The notes under the pieces were generated by a model. It saw only the letters and a list, made by a program, of their open reading frames with translations. It was not told the DNA's origin and made no database searches. From the NCBI GenBank assembly GCA_045656725.1, contig JAZORS010000088.1, positions 1 to 31,107 on the forward strand: DNA of 31,107 nucleotides, written 5' to 3'. Source of the stretch: Eubacteriales bacterium. GTDB lineage: Bacteria; Bacillota; Clostridia; Oscillospirales; CAG-272. Positions 4,458-20,229 of this stretch are shown here, piece after piece. The first letter of the stretch is position 1; each line of letters starts with the position of its first letter. Made by a program: the position numbers and the translations under genes.

Positions 4458-5223
4458 TTCCCTTTTGCGCCTCCATTTTTGATTTTATAAATTTCGCAAC
4501 CGCGCCGCCGGCTTCCCGGTCGTCAAGCTGCGAGAACGCAAGTGATAGGTTGTTCTGATAACCGACAAAGCGGTCGCCCGATACGATATAGCTTTCAACA
4601 AGCCGTATTCCCGATGCCGCAAGCGAGGCTTCAAGAAGGTGCGTTGTTTGCATATCCGCCTCTGACGGAAAAAGCGGTCCGTGCGGATGGTTGTGTCCTA
4701 TCATAGCGAGGCATGCGCCGCATTCAACGGCGGCGCTGATAAACGGTGAGGGCTTGACTCCTCCCGAACCGAGATCGAGTGAGTAAAGCTCGCGAGTGCC
4801 GAGATGGCACATATTGCCGTCAAGTAAAACGAGCGCTACCGTGTAATCGCGCTTTTCTTCCAAAAGGCGAAGAAAATATCTGCCGCAATACGAGTAGTCG
4901 TCAAAGCTCTTTTCGCCGACATCCTCCGTTTCCTTGGCAACAGCTGTGAGCCGACCGAGAGCGAGAAGAAAATCGGCGCACTTTCCGCCAATACCCTCAA
5001 CGGACATAAGCTCATCGCGGCTTGCTGAAAAGATAGCGTCAAGCGAGCCGAATCGGGAAATAAGCCGTCTTGCCGTGTGATTCGTGTTCATTTGCGGAAC
5101 TACGTGGTAAAGCGCCATTTCGAGAAGCTCGTGGGTTTCAAAAACCTTTGCTCCGTGTTCGTCGAATTTTCGGCGCATTCTTTGTCTGTGGCCCTTATGA
5201 AGATTCTCTTTTTCAGTCATCAT
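4447..5223 (-). CDS. radC: RadC family protein (HhH + JAB)
   Basis: 258 aa; HKGHRQRMR N-terminal motif, FGSLDAIF...VEGIG HhH, HNHPHGPLFPSEAD. Confidence 0.85.
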   Translation of the reverse strand: MMTEKENLHKGHRQRMRRKFDEHGAKVFETHELLEMALYHVVPQMNTNHTARRLISRFGSLDAIFSASRDELMSVEGIGGKCADFLLALGRLTAVAKETEDVGEKSFDDYSYCGRYFLRLLEEKRDYTVALVLLDGNMCHLGTRELYSLDLGSGGVKPSPFISAAVECGACLAMIGHNHPHGPLFPSEADMQTTHLLEASLAASGIRLVESYIVSGDRFVGYQNNLSLAFSQLDDREAGGAVAKFIKSKMEAQKGNEP

Positions 5224-5945
5224 TACCTTGTCTTTTGACCTTTATTGTATCTTTTTCTTTCGCGAGAAAGCTCCTCGGGAACGTCGGGGCAAAAGCCCGC
5301 GGGTTTTACAACTTCGAGCATATTGATTTTATAGCCCTGCGAGGAGAAATTCTCTTCGTATTCGGTTCTGACGTTATCTTTGTTGTATTCCGAGGCGTGC
5401 AAATCTCTCGTTACGGTAGAGGGGGTGAGTCCAAAGGACTCGATTTCTTCAAGCGTGAAATCGAAGAGCCCCGTGTTATCCGTTTTGAAGCGGAGCTTGC
5501 CGCCGTCCTTTAAAAGATTGAAGTAAACGGCAAGATATCTTCTGTGAGTCAGACGGCGCTTTGCGTATCCCTTTTTAGACCAGGGGTCAGAAAAATTAAG
5601 GAAAAGCGCATCTATCGCACCGGGAAGAAAAATATCCGTAAGGTTGTCCGCCGTATCGATAAGGAAGCGCAGATTTTTTGCGCCGCCCTCCGAAAGAGCC
5701 GCTTCCGCGCCCAGCATAACACAGTCGGTTACCTTTTCCATGGCTATATAAAAGACATCGGGGTTGCGCCTTGCCATCTCTCTTGCAAATCCGCCCTTGC
5801 CCGCGCCGATTTCAAGCCAAATGGGCGCGCCCGGCATGCCTAAATCTGCCGGCGGCTCGCCAAAGGGCTCGTTCGGGGAGGCAAGAAGAAGCTCCTTGCA
5901 TTTCAAAAGACGCTCATACCCGTGTTTCTTTTTTCTCATTCTCAT
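5223..5945 (-). CDS. trmB: tRNA (guanine-N7)-methyltransferase
   Basis: LEIGAGKG, LNFSDPWSKK...RRLTH, FKTDN, TEYEENF. Confidence 0.95.
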   Translation of the reverse strand: MRMRKKKHGYERLLKCKELLLASPNEPFGEPPADLGMPGAPIWLEIGAGKGGFAREMARRNPDVFYIAMEKVTDCVMLGAEAALSEGGAKNLRFLIDTADNLTDIFLPGAIDALFLNFSDPWSKKGYAKRRLTHRRYLAVYFNLLKDGGKLRFKTDNTGLFDFTLEEIESFGLTPSTVTRDLHASEYNKDNVRTEYEENFSSQGYKINMLEVVKPAGFCPDVPEELSRERKRYNKGQKTR

Positions 5946-5982
5946 ATAGTTAACACCTGCTTAAATGTAAATAAAAGTTAAC

Positions 5983-7581
5983 TTAATCCTCTTGACTGCG
6001 ATTGAATTCCGCAAGTTCAAGCCCGGGGTTGTCTTCAAGCACCCATCTTATCGACCATTCGCTTGTGAAAATGAGCAAATTGTTGCCCTTGTAGTCCTGC
6101 ACCCACTTGGTGTCATGCGAGAGCTTCAAGGTCTTGGGGTCGAGTCCTTCGTTCTTTATCCAGCGTATCTGCTGATAGTTAAGGTTTGAACGGCGCAAAT
6201 CACAGCCGTATTCGTTTTTGAGTCGGTATTCGAGCACCTCGAATTGAAGAACGCCGACAACTCCGACGATAACTCTTTCAAGTCCCGAATTCGGCTCGAA
6301 GAATATCTGAATCGCGCCTTCTTGGGCGATCTGGTTCATTCCCTTGGCGAACTGCTTTCTTTTCATAGAGTCCACCTGCTCGACCATTGCAAAATGCTCG
6401 GGCGCAAAGGTGGGAATTCCCTCAAATTTTATTTTTGAGCCGCGCTCGCACACGGTGTCGCCTATCGAGAAGATTCCAGGGTCGAAAACTCCGATAATAT
6501 CGCCCGCATACGCCTCGTCGATAACCTCTCTTTCCGCCGCCATCATTTGCTGTGGCTGGGAAAGGCGGAACGATTTTTGCCCTTGAACGTGATAGTAATC
6601 CTTGCCGCGCTCGAACTTTCCCGAGCAGATTCGCATAAAGGCAATTCTGTCGCGGTGCGCCTTGTTCATATTCGCCTGAATTTTGAAAACAAATGCTGAA
6701 AATCCCTCGTCAAAGGGGTCAACGGTATTTCCCTCGGCAACTCTCGGCAGGGGGGATGTCGTCATTTTAAGGAAATGAACGAGGAATGGCTCAACTCCGA
6801 AATTGTTGAGCGCAGAGCCGAAGAACACGGGCGAGAGCTTTCCGTGTCTTACTGCGTCAAGGTCAAAGTCAAAGCTTGCGCCGTCAAGAAGCTCTACCTG
6901 CTCAACCAGCTCCTCGCGCATATTCTCTCCGATAAGCGAGTCAAGCTTTTCCGTGTCGGTAATATCGCAGTCGATTCCCTTGATTCTTTCTCTGCCGCGG
7001 TGTCTGTCGTCAAAGGAAAGAATGGAATGGCTTGTTCTGTCGTAAACGCCCTTGAATCTCTGTCCGCTTCCAATCGGCCAGTTCATAGGATAAGTGCCGA
7101 TTCCGAACTCGCGTTCAAGCTCGTCAAGCAGGTCAAAGGGATCTCTTGCCTCACGGTCCATTTTATTTATAAAGGTAAAGATGGGAATATCCCTCATAGC
7201 GCAAACCTTGAAAAGCTTTCTCGTTTGCGGCTCAATACCCTTTGCGGCGTCAATTACCATAACTGCGCTGTCTGCCGCCATAAGAGTTCTGTACGTGTCC
7301 TCGGAGAAGTCCTGGTGACCGGGAGTGTCAAGAATATTTATGCAGTATCCGTCGTATTCAAACTGCAAAACGGACGAGGTTATAGAGATACCTCTTTGCT
7401 TTTCAAGCTCCATCCAGTCCGAAACCGCGTGCTTGTCCGATTGCTTTCCCTTTACCGAGCCCGCGGACTGTATTGCGCCGCCGTAGAGGAGGAATTTCTC
7501 CGTCAGGGTGGTTTTTCCCGCGTCGGGGTGAGAGATTATCGCAAATGTGCGCCGCCTTTTTATTTCCTCTTTAAAATCCAT
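5983..7581 (-). CDS. prfC: Peptide chain release factor 3
   Basis: RRTFAIISHPDAGKTT, DWMELEKQRGISI, DTPGHQDF, NKMD; start moved to ATG 7581 (GGAG SD, 532 aa). Confidence 0.96.
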   Translation of the reverse strand: MDFKEEIKRRRTFAIISHPDAGKTTLTEKFLLYGGAIQSAGSVKGKQSDKHAVSDWMELEKQRGISITSSVLQFEYDGYCINILDTPGHQDFSEDTYRTLMAADSAVMVIDAAKGIEPQTRKLFKVCAMRDIPIFTFINKMDREARDPFDLLDELEREFGIGTYPMNWPIGSGQRFKGVYDRTSHSILSFDDRHRGRERIKGIDCDITDTEKLDSLIGENMREELVEQVELLDGASFDFDLDAVRHGKLSPVFFGSALNNFGVEPFLVHFLKMTTSPLPRVAEGNTVDPFDEGFSAFVFKIQANMNKAHRDRIAFMRICSGKFERGKDYYHVQGQKSFRLSQPQQMMAAEREVIDEAYAGDIIGVFDPGIFSIGDTVCERGSKIKFEGIPTFAPEHFAMVEQVDSMKRKQFAKGMNQIAQEGAIQIFFEPNSGLERVIVGVVGVLQFEVLEYRLKNEYGCDLRRSNLNYQQIRWIKNEGLDPKTLKLSHDTKWVQDYKGNNLLIFTSEWSIRWVLEDNPGLELAEFNRSQED

Positions 7582-7587
7582 ATAGGT

Positions 7588-7654
7588 CTCCATTCTGTCG
7601 CCAAAGCGACCGCACAAATTACAGATGAATTTTCGGTATCGCTTTGCCACGATT
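7588..7654 (-). promoter_or_regulatory. Candidate 5'-leader motif, copy 1 (prfC)
   Basis: 54/68 aligned positions identical to 18700-18767; ends in the SD in both. Confidence 0.65.
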
Positions 7655-7790
7655 CGGGGTTGGGTACCAAATCGCGAAAATTCGAGGTGTGAACGCATGA
7701 AGCTCCATAGAGATAAACGTTAATTCACGCTAAAACACCTGTGTTTCCGGTATTTGAGATTAGCCCATAATACCCCATTATCAACTATTT

Positions 7791-7819
7791 ATTTTACCAT
7801 AACACACTGTTTTTGTCAA
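7791..7819 (-). promoter_or_regulatory. sigmaA promoter of prfC operon
   Basis: TTGACA-17bp-TAAAAT with extended TG. Confidence 0.8.
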
Positions 7820-7854
7820 TAATTTAGCCAGAGAAAAAGGGGCGCGAAGCAAAA

Positions 7855-8010
7855 GGTGATGTTCTTGACGGAGAATTTGAAAAGTGCCATTAAGTGTGAG
7901 TGTCGCATTTGACCGGTCAAACGCATTACGGGCTCCCAAACTCATATAACGACAGAAAGAGAGAACAAATCGGTTTGTAGCCGAAATGCCCTCTCTTTTT
8001 CTGTTGTTTT
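7855..8010 (+). repeat. Dispersed palindrome module, copy A
   Basis: Homologous to reverse complement of 28909-29072; TTTGACCGGTCAAA at 7908-7921 followed by a long hairpin. Confidence 0.8.
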
Positions 8011-8166
8011 TTAGTTTAGAGTTATGAGGTTATGCTCCACCGTTATGAGCTTGGGTAAACCCAAGCGTTATGATATGATTGCCCATCAAACATTAAACTT
8101 GGCGAAGCCAATCATAACGATACGAAGTATCTCATAACTCATAACTTGCCCTTGGGGCAATCATAG
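8011..8166. repeat. GTTATGA/TCATAAC hairpin array, copy 1
   Basis: GTTATGA at 8021, 8042, 8067; TCATAAC at 8112, 8132, 8139; interspersed mini-hairpins; homologous to 15711-15855. Confidence 0.85.
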
Positions 8167-18564: not shown

Positions 18565-18593
18565 ATTATACAACCGCAGAGCAAAAAAGTCAA
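18565..18593 (-). promoter_or_regulatory. sigmaA promoter of ribF-prmA-rsmE
   Basis: TTGACT-17bp-TATAAT. Confidence 0.75.
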
Positions 18594-18641: not shown

Positions 18642-18670
18642 TTGACAAAACGGGTAACGTGTGGTAAAAT
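18642..18670 (+). promoter_or_regulatory. sigmaA promoter of MFS gene
   Basis: TTGACA-17bp-TAAAAT with extended TG. Confidence 0.8.
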
Positions 18671-18699
18671 ATGTATGCATGAAAAAACGGAGTTTTCCA

Positions 18700-18767
18700 A
18701 ATCGATGCCAAGCATTACCGAAAATTCATTTAAAATTTGCGCAGTCGCCATCGGCGACGGAATGGAG
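18700..18767 (+). promoter_or_regulatory. Candidate 5'-leader motif, copy 2 (MFS)
   Basis: Homologous to reverse complement of 7588-7654; GTCGCC-ATC-GGCGAC hairpin directly before GGAGG. Confidence 0.65.
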
Positions 18768-18774
18768 GTTTTTT

Positions 18775-20229
18775 ATGAAGCTGAATTACAAAAGAACAAT
18801 ACTTGTCGGTTTTGCGTTCTTTCTTATAAGCGCATTCTGGCAGGCGTATGACACGATAATTCCTCTTGTTCTGACAAATCATTACGGTATGCCGCAGGAT
18901 TTATCGGGACTTATAATGTCTGCGGATAACGTTCTGGCGGTGTTTATGCTCCCGATTTTCGGAGCGCTTTCGGATAAGATCACCTCAAGATTCGGAAGAA
19001 GAACGCCCTTTATCGTTGTCGGAACGGTTCTCGCTATAATTTTCTTCGGACTTCTTTTTATAATCAACGCGAATCAGCTCAACGAGATTTTAGCATCCAA
19101 TATTCCCACCTTGCGCCAGGAAGCGGATGCGCTTCTTGAAATGGCGGACGCGAGCAAAGACCCGGCGCTTAAAGAGCTTGCAAACGAAAAGCTTGCGGCT
19201 GTTCAGGAAATGACGATGCAGATAACGAAAAATAACGTGGGAACACTCATAGCGTTCATTGTCGTTTTGCTTCTCACCCTCATTTCTATGGCAACCTTCC
19301 GTTCCCCCGCGGTGGCGCTTATGCCCGACGTAACGGTTAAACCGCTTCGCTCCAAGGGTAACGCGATAATCAACCTTATGGGCGCGGCAGGCGGCATTAT
19401 CGTTCTTGTTTTCGGTATGATTTTCAAAACATCGGGCCGTCCTTATATGGAGCTTTCAGGTTACATTTTCGCTGTTTGCGCTCTTATGGCAACGGCGCTT
19501 GTCGTATTCATCTTTACCGTTAAGGAAAGAAAATGGGTTGCTCTTATGGAAGAGGAAACGGAAAAATACGGCATTGAGGAAAAGGCTGAGAATGTTCCTC
19601 TTGAAAACAAAAAGCTTTCAAAGCCGGAGTTTATTTCCTTGATACTCATACTCGCATCTGTTGCGCTCTGGTATATAGGATATAACTCGATAACGAGCAA
19701 GTACTCCGTTTACGCGTCAAACGTTCTTCATTTTGATTATAACGCAACCTTGATAATAGCGCAGGCGGCGGCAATCTGCTCGTATATTCCCGTCGGTGTC
19801 CTTGCATCGAAGATAGGCAGAAGAAGAAGTATTCTTATCGGAGTTGCAATGCTTGCAACCTCGTTCCTTTCCGCCACCTTTATAACCTCCTCGTCAAGCC
19901 CTGTGTTTATGTACGTGGTGTTCATTCTTGCCGGTATCGGCTGGGCAACTATAAACGTAAACTCGTTCCCGATGGTTGTTGAGCTTGCAAAGGGCGGTGA
20001 CGTCGGAAAATATACCGGTTATTACTACACGGCATCGATGTCCGCGCAGATAATAACGCCTATTCTTTCCGGCTTCCTCATTGAAAGAGTGTTCGGTTGG
20101 TCGATATTCTTCCCCTATGCCGCGTTCTTTGTTGCTTGCTCGTTCATAACTATGTATTTCGTTAAGCACGGTGATGCCAAGGCGGAAAAGGCAGATGCTC
20201 TTGAAGCTCTCGGCGGCTCTGACGATTAA
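18775..20229 (+). CDS. MFS transporter (SLC45/maltose-permease-like)
   Basis: GALSDKITSRFGRRTPF, RSPAVALMPDV, GKYTGYYY; start moved to ATG 18775 after GGAGG. Confidence 0.88.
   Translation: MKLNYKRTILVGFAFFLISAFWQAYDTIIPLVLTNHYGMPQDLSGLIMSADNVLAVFMLPIFGALSDKITSRFGRRTPFIVVGTVLAIIFFGLLFIINANQLNEILASNIPTLRQEADALLEMADASKDPALKELANEKLAAVQEMTMQITKNNVGTLIAFIVVLLLTLISMATFRSPAVALMPDVTVKPLRSKGNAIINLMGAAGGIIVLVFGMIFKTSGRPYMELSGYIFAVCALMATALVVFIFTVKERKWVALMEEETEKYGIEEKAENVPLENKKLSKPEFISLILILASVALWYIGYNSITSKYSVYASNVLHFDYNATLIIAQAAAICSYIPVGVLASKIGRRRSILIGVAMLATSFLSATFITSSSSPVFMYVVFILAGIGWATINVNSFPMVVELAKGGDVGKYTGYYYTASMSAQIITPILSGFLIERVFGWSIFFPYAAFFVACSFITMYFVKHGDAKAEKADALEALGGSDD

Follow-up and report, generated by a model that had tools for sequence, protein, structure and literature searches.

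A modular repeat family that probably donates ribosome-binding sites to genes of one uncultured animal-gut Clostridia genus

Our analysis suggests that prfC and an MFS transporter gene have in common a leader which is probably part of a family of non-coding, modular repeats that insert into gene leaders and donate a ribosome-binding site (RBS), and that this family is confined to one uncultured genus of animal-gut Clostridia. Its copies have a fixed position and anatomy, are polymorphic for insertion, conserve a fold and form a decay series. In the window, which is the whole stretch of 31,107 nucleotides that was analysed, a sequence-only reading had noticed two similar leaders in sense orientation, one on the minus strand at 7654-7588 (copy A, prfC) and one on the plus strand at about 18701-18768 (copy B, MFS gene). 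The likeness is real, with 79% identity over 70 nt in BLASTN (E = 4e-10 within the genome), and both leaders lie between a promoter and a start codon as had been proposed, a promoter scan finding TTGACA-17-TAAAAT with a TG extension upstream of each. GGAG, the Shine-Dalgarno (SD) sequence, terminates the prfC and the MFS leader alike, again as described. The motif had not been recognised as a known riboswitch, and Rfam 15 agrees, with no match at gathering score in the whole window; a permissive Rfam 15 search with both leaders (E up to 10) returned chance-level matches only.

The motif had been taken to begin at 7654, and here the earlier description falls short: at prfC conservation runs 77 nt further upstream, to 7731, and 7588-7654 is only the 3' half of a 147-nt element (Table 1). 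The element boundaries come from full-copy alignments of 16 and of 45 copies; positions 1-121 of an nhmmer core model correspond to 7731-7611 in copy A, and a metagenome contig that skips 7584-7732 is in line with the same boundaries. Across copies the full element measures about 147-160 nt and consists, from 5' to 3', of a cap, AGCGTGAA(ATAA), a segment ending in TTCACGC, a three-way junction, an A/T-rich linker, the hairpin P5 and the tail AGAATGGAGATT, after which 3 variable nucleotides and the start codon follow (AGAATGGAGATT-N3-ATG). The cap is the invariant left end, with a GTG at the start-codon position relative to the native SD and the stops TGA and TAA in two frames, the left end reading AGC-GTG-AAA-TAA or, alternatively, GCG-TGA. 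At prfC in the window's own genome, the native leader runs up to AGGTG-TTTT, and then the cap begins. The junction is built from P2 (GAATTTTCG/CGAAAATTC, in copy A as in the general anatomy), P3 (CGATTTGG/CCAAATCG in general, CGATTTGG/CCGAATCG in copy A) and P4, a small hairpin that varies. The promoter upstream of prfC is of a type that is also conserved in congeners.

Table 1. Coordinates in the window of the two element copies, their parts and the genes they precede
Feature	Position	Strand	Basis or remark
prfC (peptide chain release factor 3) CDS	5983..7581	-	Pfam GTP_EFTU, RF3_C, EF-G_D2
Variable N3 (TAT) and prfC ATG	7579..7584	-	flank, outside the element
Full-length element, copy A, 147 nt, in the prfC 5' UTR	7585..7731	-	nhmmer core model, alignments, metagenome contig
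Tail AGAATGGAGACC with element-supplied SD	7585..7596	-	consensus AGAATGGAGATT
P5 GC hairpin, GTCGC-TTTG-GCGAC	7597..7610	-	sequence; 3' end 5 nt before the SD
Three-way-junction module	7627..7683	-	RNAalifold; covariance model R1 match 7624-7686
5' cap AGCGTGAAT	7723..7731	-	invariant columns C15-A20 (45-copy alignment)
Native SD-like AGGTG of prfC	7736..7740	-	sequence; cap now stands where the start codon was
Predicted prfC promoter, TTGACA-17-TAAAAT, TG extension	7791..7819	-	11/12 matches; upstream of the whole element
Predicted MFS promoter	18642..18670	+	11/12 matches with TG; adjoins truncated copy B
Copy B, 5'-truncated relic	18697..18770	+	nhmmer core positions 72-120 only; alignment
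MFS transporter CDS	18775..20229	+	Pfam MFS_1, MFS_2

The A/T-rich linker (7611-7625 on the minus strand of the window, and its equivalents elsewhere) carries a -10-like hexamer such as TATAAT, TGTAAT or TACAAT in about half of the copies and no -35. An internal promoter was rejected on consensus grounds: among 48 copies the best -35 reached at most 3/6 in all, the -10-like hexamer reached at least 5/6 in 24, and only external promoters were called in the prfC and MFS scans. A transcript initiated at the hexamer of the linker would start at the P5 hairpin.

RNAalifold recovered P2, P3 and P4 from 45 full copies, and the junction was then scored in 51 distinct modules from the window's own genome and at least 12 others. 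In these modules 96.9% of the cells are paired, double-sided changes occur at 8 of the 22 junction pairs (52 cells), the observed covariation score was reached by 0 of 500 shuffles, and sliding the partners by 1-3 columns lowers pairing to 29-59%. Conservation resides in the stems of P2 and P3, whose sequences are near-invariant across species, while loops and P4 vary and the junction linker measures 3 nt. The pairing AAATT-N7-AATTT that had been proposed within the leader gives way to P2 on the strength of the pairing and covariation of the 51 modules and the drop on sliding: in full copies CGAAAATTC pairs with the upstream GAATTTTCG, which lies outside 7588-7654 and is absent from copy B. 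The other hairpin that had been proposed, GTCGC(C)..GGCGAC, is real and recurs among tails with compensated stems (P5 as GTCGCC/GGCGAC, TGCCGC/GCGGCA, GCCGCC/GGCGGC, GTCACC/GGTGAC and GCCGT/ACGGC), and a hairpin of this type stands at 49% of loosely defined tails compared with 19% of ordinary GGAGG sites. P1, formed by the cap and the TTCACGC segment (GCGTGAA/TTCACGC), is a plausible pairing on which covariation is silent, neither supporting nor refuting it, because its two strands hardly vary. Folded singly, the 91-nt leaders were no more stable than shuffles (z = -0.02 and -1.63). On the sense strand there are 11 G-U pairs against 19 A-C mismatches, the latter being G-U on the opposite strand, so the transcribed strand is not favoured. 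Selection maintains the fold, whether it acts as RNA or in the form of single-stranded DNA.

Copy B retains the 3' strand of P3, P4, the 3' strand of P2, the linker, P5 (18744-18758) and GGAG (18764-18767); missing are the cap, P1 and the 5' strand of both P2 and P3, which leaves P4 and P5 as the only hairpins able to form. The orthologous MFS leader in a congener (G007) resembles a copy that decayed differently from copy B. Just upstream of the MFS promoter, at 18565-18593 on the minus strand of the window, lies a divergent promoter-like TTGACT-17-TATAAT that points toward the neighbouring minus-strand gene.

A search of the genome and of its relatives, which the sequence-only reading had suggested as a check, was run with BLASTN and nhmmer and found a multi-copy repeat that is sense-oriented and proximal to start codons. 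In the window's own genome (G000; 1.64 Mb in 236 contigs, 92% complete), copy A as query gave at least 16 good matches, and the nhmmer core model, which leaves out P5, SD and start codon, detected 20 copies, all in sense and followed by an SD (+19 to +24) and a start codon (+29 to +34); only copies cut by a contig end and one hairpin-less copy, which still ends in GGAGATTATTATG, depart from this spacing. About 15 further genes of this genome have the tail alone or with other upstream modules, cap and tail are 77-160 nt apart at 20 loci, and the genome contains about 20-25 capped copies and about 35 tails. Every copy with readable flanks is in sense and directly upstream of a start codon, and copies in other species show the same arrangement. 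The sequence GAATGGAGATT occurs 18 times in the genome and GGAGG 1825 times, which marks the tail as a signature of the family and not as the usual SD of this organism. Pairwise identity among the copies ranges from 97% to 52% with a median of 72%, which points to several subfamilies and ages. Several contigs of the genome end inside or beside copies (C89, C157, C127 and C5), which makes the copy numbers given here lower bounds, and the family is probably one cause of the fragmented assembly.

The two ends of the element follow simple rules in a sample of 48 distinct full copies. A GGAG/GAGG core is present in the 12 nt before the cap in 34 of the 48, compared with 5.3% of random 12-mers, and in 27 of these 34 it ends 3-4 nt before the cap. 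Apart from this core the left flanks are variable and no fixed 4-5-nt target abuts the left end; because even near-identical copies have different left flanks, these are part of the target, not of the element. At the right end, ATT comes directly after GGAG in 30 of 45 copies, and exactly 3 variable nucleotides separate GGAG-NNN from the start codon in 41 of 45. Tandem junctions, in which GGAGATT is joined directly to AGCGTGAAA, occur on three contigs of the window's own genome (C9, C129 and C27) and in other genomes, with at most two full copies in a row. By these junction rules the element occupies the middle of a 6-7-nt spacer between SD and start codon, and a complete initiation region arises again where its ends are joined. 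The majority of copies are found in 5' UTRs; an upstream ORF (141-403 codons) continues into the element in only 5 of the 48, and each of these ORFs terminates at the cap TGA, in the frame nnR-GCG-TGA that is expected for a native ATGA overlap with an insertion 3 nt before the ATG. Terminal inverted repeats were not detected when the first 30 nt were compared with the reverse complement of the last 30 nt (mean score 5.09, shuffled 5.07), and target-site duplication was likewise not seen, with 0 identical flank bases in 32 of 45 copies and 1 nt in 9; the sole recurrent direct similarity between the flanks is the SD-like GGAG-N3. With neither terminal inverted repeats nor a target-site duplication, no known transposition chemistry is indicated.

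Filled and empty sites were compared among genomes that are all fragmented MAGs. PrfC orthologues of 73-93% identity were found in 27 congeners, and none of their genes carries the element: in the closest congeners prfC has the same promoter type, a leader of 60-90 nt and its own SD and ATG, and congeners have an SD, 5-9 nt and the ATG at the position of the element. Contigs from four ruminant or faecal metagenome runs were aligned to 7200-8100 of the window, and in one of them 7583 is connected to 7733 through 3 letters, 149 nt being absent (AGGTGTTT-ATA-ATATG); its breakpoints coincide with the independently derived boundaries of the element, and as a single contig of depth 3.5 and 85% likeness it is supportive and not decisive. 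Other metagenome contigs have a different short leader, a 5'-shortened prfC copy, a tandem arrangement or cap-to-tail mini-variants.

Similar comparisons could be made at other genes. In relatives coaD overlaps or abuts its upstream gene (ATGA), and in the window's own genome an element lies at this junction, where the upstream gene ends at the cap TGA. At mnmA, for which congeners have an ATGA overlap with the upstream gene, the same genome (C129:4040-4265, L027) has a terminator-like hairpin, a solo tail of hairpin and SD, and a full element. The comEB leaders of two congeners (G003 and G007) are plain, that of a third (G044) has only GGAGATT-N3-ATG, and a fourth (G013) has in the same place a mini-version of about 50 nt made of cap, hairpin and tail. 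Decayed derivatives are thus present at orthologous genes, and older copies have been shortened from the 5' side or by internal deletion with the tail kept, the MFS copy being one example. Upstream of the dCMP deaminase gene (L145, G013:C55) the mini-element of about 50 nt is composed of the cap AGCGTGAAT, a short linker, a GCCG..CGGC hairpin and AGAATGGAGATT; it starts directly after the -10 box TATAAT, so that its transcript would begin at about the cap, and the same gene has a full copy in the window's own genome.

Tabulating the downstream genes, which had been suggested as a further check on the leader, yielded a functionally unrelated set and no coherent regulon. These genes encode RF3, two MFS transporters, a ZIP protein, a cytidylate-kinase-like protein, an acyltransferase, RnpA, MnmA, dCMP deaminase and CoaD, and others resemble MetG, Dxr, MurG, ProC and pyruvate kinase by their N-terminal sequence. 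Among 48 element-bearing genes from at least 12 genomes, homologous pairs were found only between sister genomes (96-97% identity), and the occupied genes differ from genome to genome.

The distribution of the family is narrow and patchy. A pattern scan of the genomes of 185,579 species found both conserved blocks at about 37 loci, all in animal-gut Clostridia MAGs labelled Eubacteriales or Clostridia bacterium or uncultured Ruminococcus sp.; five of these genomes gave 8-16 BLAST matches each, and their PrfC is 88-90% identical to that of the window's own genome, which is within the range of the genus. A covariance model of the junction (R1) matched 33 of 150 sampled congeners, with 1-17 copies each, and none of 150 genomes drawn from 96 other genera in the same order, seven of which are sister genera within the family. 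The tail pattern RGAATGGAGATT was found in 94 of 151 genomes of the genus and is enriched over its reversed control, several junction-negative genomes holding 5-7 copies compared with 0-2 for the control. This wide occurrence of the tail, also without the junction, suggests that the tail is the persistent core and the junction an optional module. These counts required the pattern scan, the covariance model and the tail pattern, as BLASTN with the element missed almost all copies in 40 relatives; the pattern scan of metagenome contigs gave mostly chance matches and a few true ones, exact-protein look-ups for contigs of the same strain (CoaD, dCMP deaminase, RnpA) returned no record, and a look-up among RNA runs found none that contains this stretch.

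The junction module also occurs outside leaders, always co-oriented with the flanking genes. In Clostridia bacterium RGIG8971 (JAGBBQ010000079.1; minus strand of L082 at 4860-6060), about 10 units are arrayed in tandem between two co-oriented genes with a period of about 125 nt. Every unit has GTCGC...GCGAC arms around P2, with the complete P3/P4 insert in some units and a short TGAGATACC loop in others, so that the same junction module is used in a different repeat architecture. Lone junction modules without cap or tail lie between co-oriented genes on the minus strands of L085 (1051-1116) and L097 (5846-5911), and their P2 helices are compensated, with CAATTTTCG/CGAAAATTG in one and AAATTTTCG/CGAAAATTT in the other, as are their P3 helices.

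The sequence-only reading had offered two explanations for the leader, and they have fared differently. An RBS-donating mobile cassette fits the many copies at unrelated genes, the empty orthologous sites, the tandems, the patchy distribution within one genus, the decayed older copies and the metagenome contig that skips exactly the element. A ligand- or protein-binding translational switch is not supported as the primary nature of the leader, given that there is no coherent regulon, that helices and not junction or loop nucleotides are conserved, and that the MFS copy has no main fold. The outcomes that this reading had named as refuting it did not occur: no Rfam family is matched, the copies are not randomly oriented and covariation is present.

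The element thus separates the native SD from the start codon, its 3' end lying about 3 nt ahead of the ATG, and its cap puts a decoy start and immediate stops in the place of the gene start. Our results lead us to propose that ribosomes which initiate at the native SD, or which arrive from an upstream gene that overlaps, would terminate at the cap stops. The right end brings P5 and a new SD, AGAATGGAGATT, and leaves the original 3 nt and the ATG in place, and the host gene would then be translated from the tail SD as its putative working RBS, with P5 beside the SD possibly insulating or stabilising the initiation region. If the tail has become the RBS of the gene, selection would keep it while the upstream modules are lost, and such selection may explain copy B and the many solo tails. 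Spread may take place by orientation-specific recombination between the joined ends (GGAGATT next to AGCGTGAAA) and a target GGAG-N3/N3-ATG, with the three-way junction as a putative recognition module for a partner and a mobilising enzyme that would act in trans. The shape of site-specific recombination is suggested by the likeness of the joined ends to the target, the left junction being target SD plus cap and the right junction tail plus target N3-ATG.

A more specific form of this proposal, which we put forward only tentatively, is that the family represents a site-specific mobile element of an undescribed kind that targets the translation initiation region. Its ends would correspond to the halves of the split region, the right one with the SD and 3 nt and the left one with 3 nt and a start/stop, such that the interrupted gene and overlapping upstream genes stay functional, and it would move by a putative recombinase or guided mechanism with the junction as the recognition module.

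The strict sense orientation and the covariation would also fit a functional RNA, and the family might instead be a protein-binding cis-regulatory RNA regulon similar to REP2/CREN, in which a single regulator or nuclease binds the junction, P5 or both and so controls, jointly for every mRNA with an element, its translation or stability. We find this doubtful as the main explanation, and it would be compatible with an insertional origin. Every copy is in sense and within a transcription unit, the junction covaries strongly and keeps its sense orientation outside leaders, and near-invariant P2 and P3 sequences across species are typical of a specific macromolecular partner; against this, the element-bearing genes are a mixed set that changes from species to species, the junction has been lost from many copies that keep the tail, the MFS copy among them, and the wobble counts do not favour the transcribed strand. 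The inserted RNA may have a secondary cis-regulatory effect, for example one mediated by a protein. That the leader is a ligand-sensing riboswitch gating access to the SD is highly improbable, even though a structured leader that ends at an SD and has no Rfam match could belong to an undescribed class: the downstream genes are functionally incoherent, the stems are conserved and loops and P4 are variable around a junction linker of just 3 nt, a conserved alternative pairing that sequesters the SD was not seen, copy B cannot fold, and the genus-restricted, patchy distribution with empty orthologous sites argues against it as well.

If the fold matters as DNA and not as RNA, the element could be moved in single-stranded form by an HUH nuclease (IS200/IS605 TnpA or RAYT-like) with P1 and P5 as subterminal hairpins, which would suit its strand specificity, the hairpins near both ends, the lack of terminal inverted repeats and target-site duplication, wobble counts that do not favour the RNA strand, and the presence of one IS200-type Y1 transposase (TnpA) gene in the window's own genome (C178:10300-11097, L037). 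We consider this unlikely, because P1 and P5 are unrelated in sequence (GCGTGAA/TTCACGC and GTCGCC/GGCGAC), while such systems use like hairpins at both ends, and because the left end has no fixed 4-5-nt target. This TnpA gene is flanked by GGTGG/CCACC-type hairpins at the end of its contig that are unrelated to the element, and Y1_Tnp is found in 12 of 34 junction-positive and 29 of 117 junction-negative genomes, with none in the richest genome (G041); IS200-type TnpA was rejected as the mobiliser on account of these unrelated hairpins and of the lack of co-occurrence across the genus. The genome gave no match for RVT_1 (reverse transcriptase), IS110-type or TnpB proteins, which at 92% completeness is no proof of their absence. 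This failure to find a mobilising enzyme, together with the SD-like GGAG-N3 at both junctions as a short direct homology, could be taken to mean that no dedicated mobility exists and that leaders are homogenised or copied by ordinary recombination or gene conversion at short SD-region homology and kept as good initiation regions. Such an explanation also has a low probability in our judgment, as the homology is just 4-7 nt long, more than 40 copies from at least 12 genomes have precise junctions, head-to-tail tandems are found in several species, and each genome has its own expansion of subfamilies.

Few repeats are known to carry expression signals, the examples being REP2, the Borrelia IR repeats and MIRUs. 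By our comparison the Neisseria REP2 and Borrelia IR repeats, together with the mycobacterial MIRUs, form the closest known class. REP2 (CREN; Morelle et al. 2003) is described in PMC3184786 as a repeat of 120-150 bp with 23-26 copies, two internal stem-loops and no terminal inverted repeats, located immediately upstream of genes with a promoter, an RBS and an ATG, 14 of these genes being co-regulated; IR-A and IR-B of Borrelia are described in the same source as sequences similar in kind, with promoter and ATG (PMC3184786). The element studied here shares with them the size class of 120-150 bp, tens of copies, the lack of terminal inverted repeats, internal stem-loops, sense orientation, a position upstream of ORFs and an RBS of its own. 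Unlike them, it has no promoter of its own, there being no usable -35 and the called promoters being external, and the ATG, the 3 variable nucleotides before it and the N-termini are those of the host gene. Further differences are its decoy start/stop cap, the covarying three-way junction, the defined point within the SD-start spacer at which it is inserted and its occurrence in a Firmicutes genus, and no relationship in sequence to REP2 or IR-A/IR-B is seen.

MIRUs (Supply et al. 1997), as summarised in PMC3184786, are actinobacterial repeats of 40-100 bp within polycistrons, with ends that overlap the stop and start of adjacent genes, imperfect terminal inverted repeats and variable-number tandem arrays. 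Like MIRUs, the element is co-oriented with its flanking genes and can stand head to tail; an overlap with the stop of an upstream gene is seen in only 5 of 48 copies, all of which use the cap TGA. It differs by its tail of hairpin and SD, which is not among the MIRU features reported in that source, by the rarity of this overlap and by tandems of at most 2 full copies. MITEs such as Correia, RUP, Chunjie and Nezha and the modular BOX repeats are likewise small, non-coding and multi-copy, with filled and empty sites and deletion variants, and Chunjie has been reported to insert in an operon without disturbing it (PMC3184786). Unlike these, our family has strict orientation and a start-codon position, no cognate IS was found, and, since terminal inverted repeats and target-site duplication were tested for and are absent, it is not a classical MITE. 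With riboswitches and the cis-regulatory leaders of Rfam it has in common a structured 5' UTR element that ends at the SD, and it is set apart from them by the lack of a match in Rfam 15, by an incoherent gene set and by its insertion relative to orthologous leaders. Nothing specific turned up when we searched the literature for an element that inserts between an SD and its start codon.

Within this class the family has an unusually clean anatomy, with a defined insertion in the SD-start spacer, a left end that would stop upstream translation, a right end that would restore initiation, and visible stages of decay. As recurring structured leaders in MAGs may be repeats and not riboswitches, our findings are also a warning for annotation. 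The tail of hairpin and SD may be a portable, context-insulated initiation cassette for Clostridia, and the three-way junction, which is reused in at least 3 repeat architectures, offers a handle for finding its putative partner. Within one genus, the family illustrates how the initiation regions of housekeeping genes, among them prfC, rnpA, mnmA, coaD, metG, murG and others, can be rewritten by a repeat that is selfish or semi-domesticated.
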